From the IMG/VR virus record IMGVR_UViG_3300035034_002581: a stretch of DNA of 64,000 bases; one strand, given 5' to 3'. The translations under genes and the position numbers were made by a program. The notes beneath the pieces are model-generated. The model did no database searches, was not told the DNA's origin, and worked only from the letters and a program-made list of their open reading frames with translations. Below, piece after piece: positions 24,874-25,218 of this stretch; the first letter of the stretch is position 1; each line of letters starts with the position of its first letter. Source of the DNA: a virus.

Positions 24874-25218
24874 TTACATATTTTTTAGTGCTAAAGGGAA
24901 ACAACTGCAAACTCTCCTAGATTCATTACTAGGTTCAAGTGCAACACACGTAATCATGTTATCAAAGTCAGGCTCTCTAAAGATTGCGATTTTGATATTA
25001 CGTGATTTAGCTTTCTCAATTAGCTCAATTATTTTTTGTTCATTCTTGCAGTTAAGTACTGCAATGTAGTTTGAGTTTTCAAACCACTCTTTATCAATGT
25101 CTGGGAAGTCATTTGAAAATTGCCTAAGTCCGTGACAAGCTTGAGCAATTTGGCTACCAGGTGATAGGTCACTTCTGACAACTACATAAAGTTTGTCGCC
25201 TTCGTGTATCTAAGACAT
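24874..25218 (-). pseudogene. PTH2-family peptidyl-tRNA hydrolase homolog with in-frame TAG at codon 3 (ATG TCT TAG ATA...)
   Basis: Translation MS*IHEGDKLYVVVRSDLSPGSQIAQACHGLRQF... matches PTH2 N-terminal consensus (vVvR.DL..gkGK.aAQ..HA); absent from ORF track because no start after the TAG. Confidence 0.5.

Follow-up and report, generated by a model that had tools for sequence, protein, structure and literature searches.

In the 64,000-nucleotide stretch of the virus record IMGVR_UViG_3300035034_002581 that was analysed here (the whole of which we call the window), a gene for a PTH2-like protein starts with an ATG that is followed, at codon 3, by an in-frame TAG. Comparison with related loci and cultured phages leads us to conclude that this TAG is probably a programmed amber codon, so that synthesis of the PTH2-fold enzyme would depend on an adjacent, phage-encoded tRNA(CUA). 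The conclusion draws on the conservation and nucleotide context of the leader stop, on its linkage to and covariation with suppressor tRNA genes, and on the ordinary use of TAG as a terminator elsewhere in the window. In the window itself, the neighbouring suppressor tRNA has been destroyed by a small deletion.

A conserved stop codon in the leader of the PTH2-like gene

On the minus strand, positions 25218..24874 read ATG (25218-25216) TCT TAG ATA CAC GAA GGC GAC AAA CTT TAT and continue for a total of 115 codons to a TAA, as the initial annotation of this sequence had described. Its statement that no alternative start is available likewise holds, since no in-frame ATG, GTG or TTG is present across the 84 codons that follow the TAG, and in a scan of the window's coding strand this gene was the top case of a long start-less open reading frame (ORF) lying behind a stop with an ATG just 5' of it. 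The spacing of the Shine-Dalgarno-like motif fits the ATG and not the codon after the TAG, both in the window and in relatives (GAGGAGG in locus L003; AAGGAG in locus L008 and in the phage LR756501). The further claim that conservation resumes immediately after the TAG is valid for close relatives, in which I-x-x-G-D-K-L-Y is shared, and slightly overstated for the Pfam family as a whole, position 2 of the PF01981 profile being aligned to the sixth residue past the TAG (the K of KLYVVV).

A profile-guided scan of IMG/VR yielded 55 loci, many of them on contigs of 300-500 kb, which together with loci L001-L004 made up a set of 59, including two duplicates. Of the 59 loci, 41 have a short leader directly in front of the PTH2 core, in which an ATG and 0-7 further codons run up to an in-frame TAG; an alternative canonical start is mostly lacking. 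Clustering at 80% identity reduced the set to 51 lineages, 30 of them with the leader TAG, and the addition of cultured phages brought the lineages with an early in-frame stop to 36; these lineages, to which the counts and P values refer, are not phylogenetically independent of each other. Most are jumbo phages, and they span 26-58% protein identity and 23-67% GC. Throughout, the stop lies between codons 2 and 9 (codon 3 in 20 lineages, codon 4 in 10) and the reading frame runs on unchanged beyond it. This stop is a TAG in 35 lineages and a TAA in one (L011). It is followed by A in 29 of the 36 lineages, by G in 7 and by a pyrimidine in none, compared with 11 purines and 12 pyrimidines after the genuine TAG terminators of the window (P = 1.2e-6). 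The complete codon 3' of the stop reads ATT in 19 lineages, ATA in 2, AAC, AAT or GAA in 9, and GTA or GTT in 6.

Examples include L002 (54% identical protein; ATG GCG TAG ATT AAA GAA GGC GAT AAG) and L003 (55%; GAGGAGGtttaat ATG TCG TAG ATT AAT AAT GGT GAT AAA), as well as six cultured phages, independently sequenced and annotated under the standard code, in which the leader was inspected individually: Yersinia phage fHe-Yen9-04 (ATG TCT CAC TAG ATT), Erwinia phage pEa_SNUABM_44 (ATG ACG CAC TAG AAT), Cronobacter phage GAP32 (ATG GCA CAA TAG AAT), Ralstonia phage RsoM2USA (ATG TTG TAG ATT), Acinetobacter phage ME3 (ATG ACT TAG ATT) and Salmonella phage Arash (ATG CTG TAG AAC). In the GenBank records of all six, the PTH2-like gene is unannotated or truncated, as would be expected of a gene with an in-frame stop that goes unrecognised. 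Outside this inspected set, copies 88-97% identical occur in Serratia phage BF, Pectobacterium phage CBB, Xanthomonas phage XbC2 and others; a megablast search of GenBank phages found no close relative of the window. Since the early stop is conserved across so many lineages, the cultured phages among them, it is neither a sequencing error nor the mark of a random, recent pseudogene, two of the four explanations that the initial annotation had considered.

Suppressor tRNA genes accompany the leader stop

A tRNA(CUA) gene lies within 4 kb of the PTH2-like gene in 24 of the 30 TAG lineages, as against 7 of the 20 lineages without a stop (Fisher test, P = 0.0025). The linked tRNA is mostly encoded on the same strand, often at a distance of 400 nt or less. 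Phage ME3, for instance, encodes very few tRNAs, and one of these, annotated 'anticodon CTA', is located ~430 nt upstream of the PTH2-like gene. The nature of the stop changes together with the neighbouring anticodon: L011 reads ATG GCT TAA AAC and has a tRNA(UUA) 311 nt downstream, while its sister L012 reads ATG ACG TAG AAT and has a tRNA(CUA) 343 nt downstream. This covariation, found in one lineage only, is the strongest single argument that the leader stop would be decoded by the neighbouring tRNA.

The suppressor tRNAs are diverse in sequence, with canonical YU-CUA-AA loops and at least two types of acceptor end (U1-A72/G73 and G1-C72/A73), both of which are sometimes encountered at one locus. 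By the identity rule, we take the U1-A72/G73 ends of some of them to be Gln-like; when the tRNA(CUA) was compared with the tRNAs encoded in the window, the highest similarity was 0.71 (Thr), a value that is not diagnostic of the amino acid carried. Use of the tRNA(CUA) as an initiator at the UAG was considered from sequence features and rejected, as the anticodon stems of these tRNAs do not contain a run of three G-C pairs and their 1-72 pairs are mostly normal. For the Erwinia phages covered by the Eneladusvirus paper, a 'tRNA-Pyl' is reported among the tRNAs, elsewhere in the genomes (PMC7760394).

Ochre-suppressor-like tRNA(UUA) genes are also found beside PTH2-like genes that have no early stop, namely, in L004 (2196-2270), L037 (4679-4769) and Lak-A1 (L071; 1733-1805). 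Given that suppressors adjoin even such genes, the functional link between enzyme and suppressor looks wider than the amber gate. In Mycobacterium phage Myrna (L073), the gene MYRNA_86 (1666-1737) is a tRNA-Ser (UCG) according to GenBank and has an anticodon loop, CUUCUAAAC, that reads as CUA. A C:C mismatch closes the anticodon stem of this tRNA, as in the tRNA(CUA) of L001 described below, and the gene is located 130 nt downstream of the PTH2-like gp84, the GTG start of which directly follows a TAG.

A deletion has fused two tRNAs next to the gene in the window

ARAGORN identified 38 tRNAs and a transfer-messenger RNA (tmRNA) in the window, none of the tRNAs having a CUA anticodon. Searches with Rfam revealed two more tRNA-like elements, missed by ARAGORN, directly upstream of the PTH2-like gene, one of which is a local match (25250..25308; 29.4 bits, model positions 8-63) with an anticodon loop, U-U-CUA-A-C, of the amber-suppressor kind. 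The inspection of all tRNAs for a CUA anticodon that the initial annotation had called for therefore has a divided outcome, with no call by ARAGORN and a non-functional CUA chimera upstream of the gene that is visible to Rfam.

The origin of the chimera is apparent from the public contig IMGVR_UViG_3300035698_022074 (L001/L005, hereafter L001), which is 99.5% identical to the window across 8.3 kb and 100% identical in nucleotide sequence over the PTH2-like gene. There, an intact tRNA(CUA), denoted 'Pyl' by ARAGORN and matched over the full length by Rfam (56.7 bits), is located 104 nt upstream of the ATG and is followed by a third tRNA that also lies upstream of the gene. Compared with L001, the window has undergone an 84-nt deletion that ends within the identical GGTTCAAATCC T-loops of these two adjacent tRNAs and fuses them. 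The 5' part of the chimera, comprising the acceptor strand, D arm, anticodon arm and 5' T-stem, derives from the amber suppressor, and the 3' part, with the 3' T-stem, acceptor strand and CCA, from the neighbouring tRNA. Because the deletion joined two tRNA genes, the acceptor strands of the product cannot pair, with only 3/7 acceptor-stem pairs possible.

With the suppressor tRNA destroyed, the PTH2-like gene is predicted to be silent in the window strain unless another suppressor exists. No intact amber suppressor was detected in the 64-kb window, including the main tRNA cluster, by ARAGORN with default or relaxed settings or by Rfam. Several candidates were rejected: the tRNAs at 30028..30100 and 15646..15735, matched by Rfam and missed by default ARAGORN, have different anticodons, the TTCTAA at 30326-30331 belongs to an AT-rich hairpin that is not a tRNA, and relaxed ARAGORN runs allowing introns produced spurious calls only. 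The deletion allele was present in no other public contig searched, and no independent assembly of either allele was found beyond L001.

The second of the Rfam elements, at 25324..25396, is the counterpart of the first tRNA in the unusual group of three found ahead of the PTH2-like gene in L001; its 3' end is an encoded CCA in the window and CAA in L001. The third of these tRNAs (L001 2892-2972) is mostly deleted in the window, where its 3' end persists at 25238-25252. It has an 8-nt anticodon loop, U-A-UUUA-U-A, that relaxed ARAGORN interprets as 'Lys|Stop (ttta)', which makes it a candidate decoder of ochre or quadruplet codons.

TAG is used as a normal terminator in the window

Among 89 crudely predicted genes of the window, 23 end with TAG, 36 with TAA and 30 with TGA, and the gene at 2613..4577, cited by the initial annotation as an example of normal TAG termination, is one of the 23. 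Reading TAG as sense increased the ORF coverage of the window from 0.82 to 0.89, compared with 0.92 and 0.93 in the TGA and TAA controls, and in most related loci, too, the gain was not above that of the controls, by a metric that is crude and uninformative at a few loci such as L043 and L059. Terminator usage and ORF coverage thus agree with the earlier assessment that genome-wide recoding is unlikely.

The count of in-frame TAGs in other genes, suggested at the outset as a check, singled out the same gene. No other TAG-interrupted gene was found on the coding strand of the window, which leaves one interrupted gene in 64 kb. The scan for start-less ORFs behind a stop, carried out on 0.52 Mb of related loci, returned 30 matches, of which 14-15 were PTH2, the one gene to recur, and the remainder non-recurrent shadows. 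Given that TAG is otherwise a normal terminator, these results indicate gene-specific gating and not a genome-wide change of the code. Two exceptions blur this boundary: the PTH2 gene of the 735-kb phage LR756501 contains a further, internal TAG, and so does the partner gene of GAP32-like phages described below.

The PTH2-like gene encodes a PTH2-fold protein with an apparently remodelled active-site region

The protein encoded downstream of the TAG matches the Pfam family PTH2 (PF01981; E = 2.3e-12, 47.6 bits with a cut-off of 23), and the profile of the PTH2-like family matches M. jannaschii Pth2 (2zv3; E = 3.7e-11) and Bit1 (1q7s). The AlphaFold2 model of the protein has a predicted local distance difference test score of 96.8 and a predicted template modelling (TM) score of 0.89. 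In a Foldseek search of the PDB with this model, the best 14 matches were all Pth2 or Bit1 chains (TM-score 0.61-0.79), and the top ones, MJ0051, AF2095, SsPth2 and Bit1, had scores of 0.74-0.79.

The lysine of the G-K-G-K loop and the D-A-G-x-T-Q loop are what we take to be the canonical Pth2 active-site motifs. In the phage family, the G-K-G-K loop is 2 residues shorter than in 2zv3, and the canonical R-D-A-G-x-T-Q region has become F-R-E-P-D-x-D-N...T; in the hidden Markov model alignment, 'RDAGHTQLEPGTLT' of 2zv3 corresponds to the invariant F-R-E-P-D-x-D-N....T of the phage proteins, 4 residues shorter. With the catalytic region apparently remodelled in this manner, peptidyl-tRNA hydrolase is the likely, albeit unproven, activity predicted for the phage PTH2-like protein.

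A partner gene with an internal TAG

In at least 18 loci, the gene next to the PTH2-like gene, on either its upstream or its downstream side, encodes a protein of ~175 amino acids and unknown function, PHROG 14850, a homolog of which is missing from the window. This protein is characterised by the motifs HDxGKP...HFPNHA...DM..H...MFGG.[DE]S.SFKIK; it has no Pfam match, and its profile matches the class-II tRNA nucleotidyltransferase 3wfo weakly (E = 6e-4). In XacN1 (ORF364), L058 and L063, it is fused in frame to the PTH2 domain. A TAG inside the partner gene (..ELD[ST]G-TAG-GD..) is conserved in GAP32, fHe-Yen9-04 and pEa_SNUABM_44, and the corresponding residue is Val in Arash and ME3. As no start codon is present near this TAG, it argues, independently of the leader, for TAG being read as a sense codon in these phages. 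In GenBank, the TAG-bearing partner gene of the three phages is annotated as two separate coding sequences.

The open frame upstream of the leader in L008, L010 and L036 raised the possibility that the leader TAG separates two domains of one protein. This was rejected for these three loci, as the partner ends in its own frame there, and the two-domain fusion is real only in XacN1, L058 and L063, all of which are devoid of the stop.

A proposed amber gate and its alternatives

We propose that the ribosome would start at the Shine-Dalgarno-preceded ATG and meet the UAG with fMet-Ser on the P-site tRNA. When charged tRNA(CUA) is present, the UAG would be decoded, with insertion of whichever amino acid that tRNA carries, and the full 114-residue enzyme would be made; when it is absent, release factor 1 (RF1) would release the dipeptide. 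The purine that follows would help the tRNA(CUA) to read the UAG. In E. coli, the classical context effects are such that a purine after UAG favours suppression over the release factor. Both transcription and an active suppressor would then be needed for expression, as in an AND gate, with an output that scales with UAG suppression. The purpose of such a gate may be to keep the capacity for tRNA recycling and clean-up in step with stop-codon readthrough in a phage that has retained TAG as a terminator. In the window strain, the gate would be stuck closed after the 84-nt deletion, unless a suppressor lies outside the window. Among the four explanations considered by the initial annotation, amber readthrough by a phage tRNA is the one that the comparative data support.

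Possible, if rather doubtful, is an extension of this model in which the suppressor tRNA and the amber-gated enzyme, joined in many phages by the adjacent or fused PHROG 14850 protein with its resemblance to a tRNA-end enzyme, form a self-regulating module for controlled stop suppression in standard-code jumbo phages. The leader UAG would sense the suppressor, and the enzyme would act on ester-linked species of the suppressor or on by-products of readthrough, closing a feedback or feed-forward loop; such a module might be a first step toward full reassignment of TAG.

Several observations weigh against an amber gate. All our conclusions, for every member of the family, come from comparative sequence analysis, and the lineages behind the counts and P values are not independent. 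In six of the 30 TAG lineages there is no tRNA(CUA) within 4 kb, on contigs that are partial; the TAA/UUA covariation rests on the single lineage L011; and XacN1 and RaK2 have PTH2-like genes without any stop. A suppressor strong enough for the leader TAG would also extend about 1/4 of the phage proteins, a cost that the phage would have to tolerate. The catalytic loop is unlike that of canonical Pth2, making the enzymatic role uncertain. The window strain has lost its cognate tRNA, and its PTH2-like gene may thus just not be expressed. Finally, in 21 of the 36 lineages, including the window with its ATA, the stop is followed by the near-cognate ATT or ATA, where reinitiation is possible.

Under such a scenario, the two-codon mini-ORF ATG-TCT-TAG is terminated and the ribosome reinitiates at the ATA (ATT in relatives), the suppressor being irrelevant. 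The prevalence of ATT (19 lineages) and ATA (2 lineages) after the stop fits this scheme, as does the homolog P0002, which begins with Met-Ile at the position equivalent to TAG-ATA, and the persistence of an intact gene in the window next to a broken suppressor. The mini-ORF also resembles the bar minigenes of phage lambda (AUG-AUA-UAA), where termination after a short peptide favours peptidyl-tRNA drop-off and which act through limitation of the host Pth. In both cases, a Shine-Dalgarno-preceded ORF of two sense codons and a stop is functionally tied to peptidyl-tRNA hydrolase, but the bar minigenes are stand-alone, whereas the phage mini-ORF is in frame with a conserved hydrolase domain directly 3' of it and covaries with a suppressor tRNA. 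We nevertheless consider reinitiation improbable: the codons AAC, AAT or GAA (9 lineages) and GTA or GTT (6 lineages) after the stop offer no usable start; the type of stop covaries with the neighbouring anticodon, TAA going with UUA; the physical linkage to tRNA(CUA) is strong; the internal TAG of the partner gene is left unaccounted for; and TAG is used in 35 of the 36 lineages although TAA or TGA would serve equally well. Initiation at the ATA, another of the explanations in the initial annotation, is unlikely as a general mechanism for the same reasons, namely, the AAC, AAT or GAA codons in 9 of the 36 lineages, the tRNA(UUA) of the TAA lineage and the lack of a start codon near the internal TAG of the GAP32-like partner gene.

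A second alternative concerns the window alone, where the locus could be decaying, with the PTH2-like gene an unexpressed relic after the loss of the tRNA(CUA), or the 84-nt deletion could be an artefact of assembly. Decay or artefact would be in line with an acceptor stem that cannot pair, the drop of the Rfam score from 56.7 to 29.4 bits, the lack of any other CUA tRNA in the 64 kb, the main tRNA cluster included, and the failure to find the deletion allele in any other public contig searched. Either would bear on the present state of the window strain only and not on the origin of the TAG. The PTH2 ORF, being 100% nucleotide-identical to its counterpart beside the intact tRNA in L001, has no sign of decay as yet, and the rest of the genome may carry another suppressor. 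As for an artefact, the 11-nt repeat appears too short to collapse in a modern assembly, and a real, microhomology-mediated deletion would be the more likely event. On balance, we judge decay or artefact to have a low probability.

Least probable of all is an ordinary genome-wide or late-gene reassignment of TAG, similar to genetic code 15, with the other recoded genes located beyond the 64 kb of genome that the window covers: there is ample documentation of phages that recode stop codons with the help of suppressor tRNAs (10.1101/2021.08.26.457843; PMC9523058), and the second TAG in the PTH2 gene of LR756501 and the TAG in the GAP32-like partner gene would accord with it, but TAG ends 23 of the 89 window genes with no other gene interrupted there, in the window and most loci the coverage gained by reading TAG as sense does not surpass that of either control (TGA or TAA), the fixed position of the stop (codons 2-9) among homologs of 26-58% identity is unlike that of random recoded codons, and phages such as GAP32, ME3 and Arash have dense annotations made with the standard code.

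Comparison with known systems

Recoding of TAG by suppressor tRNAs is known from crAss-like and Lak phages, in which code 15 assigns TAG to Gln (10.1101/2021.08.26.457843; PMC9523058). In those phages, as in the proposed amber gate, a phage tRNA(CUA) decodes in-frame TAG, and recoding has been proposed to time the translation of genes. Unlike in code-15 phages, TAG is here still a frequent terminator, the phenomenon is limited to one gene family and, in some phages, its partner gene, the stop occupies a fixed position at codons 2-9 of divergent homologs, and the tRNA is physically linked. With respect to the hallmarks of code 15, the window has a tRNA(CUA) only as a chimeric remnant (intact in L001), does not have many in-frame TAGs and is not depleted of TAG. 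The Borges preprint (10.1101/2021.08.26.457843) contains no occurrence of the word 'hydrolase' and does not mention PTH2.

The prfB gene, which encodes release factor 2 (RF2; PMC12421855), likewise has a conserved early in-frame stop in a gene of the translation-factor type, with the balance between decoding and termination setting the amount of the product, so that the stop senses how termination and decoding stand in the cell. It requires a +1 frameshift, however, and senses its own product, RF2; in the window gene, ATG, TAG and PTH2 core share one frame so that no frameshift is involved, a dedicated suppressor tRNA would be needed, and feedback by the product is putative. A synthetic feed-forward gate in which early amber codons and a co-expressed suppressor tRNA constitute an AND gate that removes leaky expression (PMC7969014) follows the same principle. 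That circuit is engineered, whereas the phage PTH2 gate would be a natural and widespread counterpart.

Large tRNA sets, suppressor tRNAs and Pth-type genes are shared with the jumbo phages XacN1 (PMC5852040) and Atu_ph07 (PMC6102473). The authors of the XacN1 study could identify no gene targeted by its tRNA(CUA)s (PMC5852040). The PTH2-like domain of XacN1 (ORF364) has no stop, and hence the amber gate would provide a target in many jumbo phages, not in XacN1 itself. The open-access literature searched contained no description of an amber gate that is confined to a single, PTH2-like gene of standard-code phages and to a specific position within it.

If the model is correct, the suppressor tRNAs of many standard-code jumbo phages, for which no target was known, would have a concrete and conserved one, and the logic of engineered amber/suppressor-tRNA circuits would have a natural translational equivalent. 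The decoding of a stop could be restricted to one gene module while TAG continues to serve as a terminator, a plausible intermediate on the path toward full code reassignment. Recognition of the leader also corrects the GenBank annotation of GAP32, ME3, RsoM2USA, Arash, fHe-Yen9-04 and pEa_SNUABM_44. As several of the carriers are available in culture and infect tractable hosts (Cronobacter, Acinetobacter, Salmonella, Ralstonia, Erwinia and Yersinia), the hypothesis can be tested directly.

Other features of the window

Table 1. Coordinates of the features described in the window and, for the partner gene, in three cultured phages
Feature	Coordinates	Strand	Details
PTH2-like gene	24874..25218	-	114 sense codons and stop; leader ATG TCT TAG, then PTH2-fold domain
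In-frame amber codon 3	25210..25212	-	next base A (TAG-A context)
Shine-Dalgarno-like AAGGA	25226..25230	-	7 nt 5' of the ATG at 25218-25216
Chimeric tRNA(CUA) remnant	25238..25315	-	anticodon CTA at 25281-25279; Rfam local match and alignment with L001
GGTTCAAATCC T-loop repeat, junction of the 84-nt deletion relative to L001	25253..25263	-	pairwise alignment
Upstream tRNA	25324..25396	-	Rfam 44.8 bits; loop UUUUUGA, non-canonical T-loop; missed by ARAGORN
tmRNA	9071..9438	-	Rfam 119.8 bits; tag peptide ANNNSHFQTALAA; shares the window with the tRNA cluster and PTH2-like gene
tRNA-like gene	15646-15735	-	Rfam 42.7 bits; 32-nt region replaces the ~15-nt anticodon arm
Extra tRNA	30028-30100	-	43.4 bits; loop UUGUGUC, His GUG-like; found by Rfam and relaxed, not default, ARAGORN
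PHROG 14850 gene with internal TAG, fHe-Yen9-04 (L060)	3348-3866		
PHROG 14850 gene with internal TAG, pEa_SNUABM_44 (L061)	3369-3887		
PHROG 14850 gene with internal TAG, GAP32 (L066)	960-1478		

The presence in the window of a tmRNA in addition to the tRNA cluster and the PTH2-like gene (Table 1) points to a broader ribosome-rescue and translation toolkit. The tRNA-like gene at 15646-15735, for which standard ARAGORN made no call, was assigned a four-base anticodon, 'gtag', under relaxed settings.

The initial annotation had pointed to the TAG at 1507-1509 as a second in-frame TAG at a gene junction. This does not hold up, because the codon is in the frame of the ORF 1069..1407 and falls inside the ORF 1380..1895, which is in another frame. 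As the two ORFs differ in frame, joining them would require a frameshift and not readthrough, and extension of the downstream ORF back to the TAG added no Pfam signal, so that this site was discarded as a second example of readthrough. The two overlapping ORFs of this region (1069-1895, minus strand) have weak matches to glycosyltransferase group 1 (GT1) and are located downstream of a clear GT2 gene (1873..2604); they probably represent a glycosyltransferase gene that is split by a frameshift or subject to programmed frameshifting. Elsewhere in the window, which has 42% GC, a stretch of GC-rich repeats (GCTAGGGCGCTAGGGCCCTCTGCAAGGGCCCTGGGCCCC...) unlike the rest of the sequence is found at ~57800-57935 on the minus strand, just past a TAG stop.

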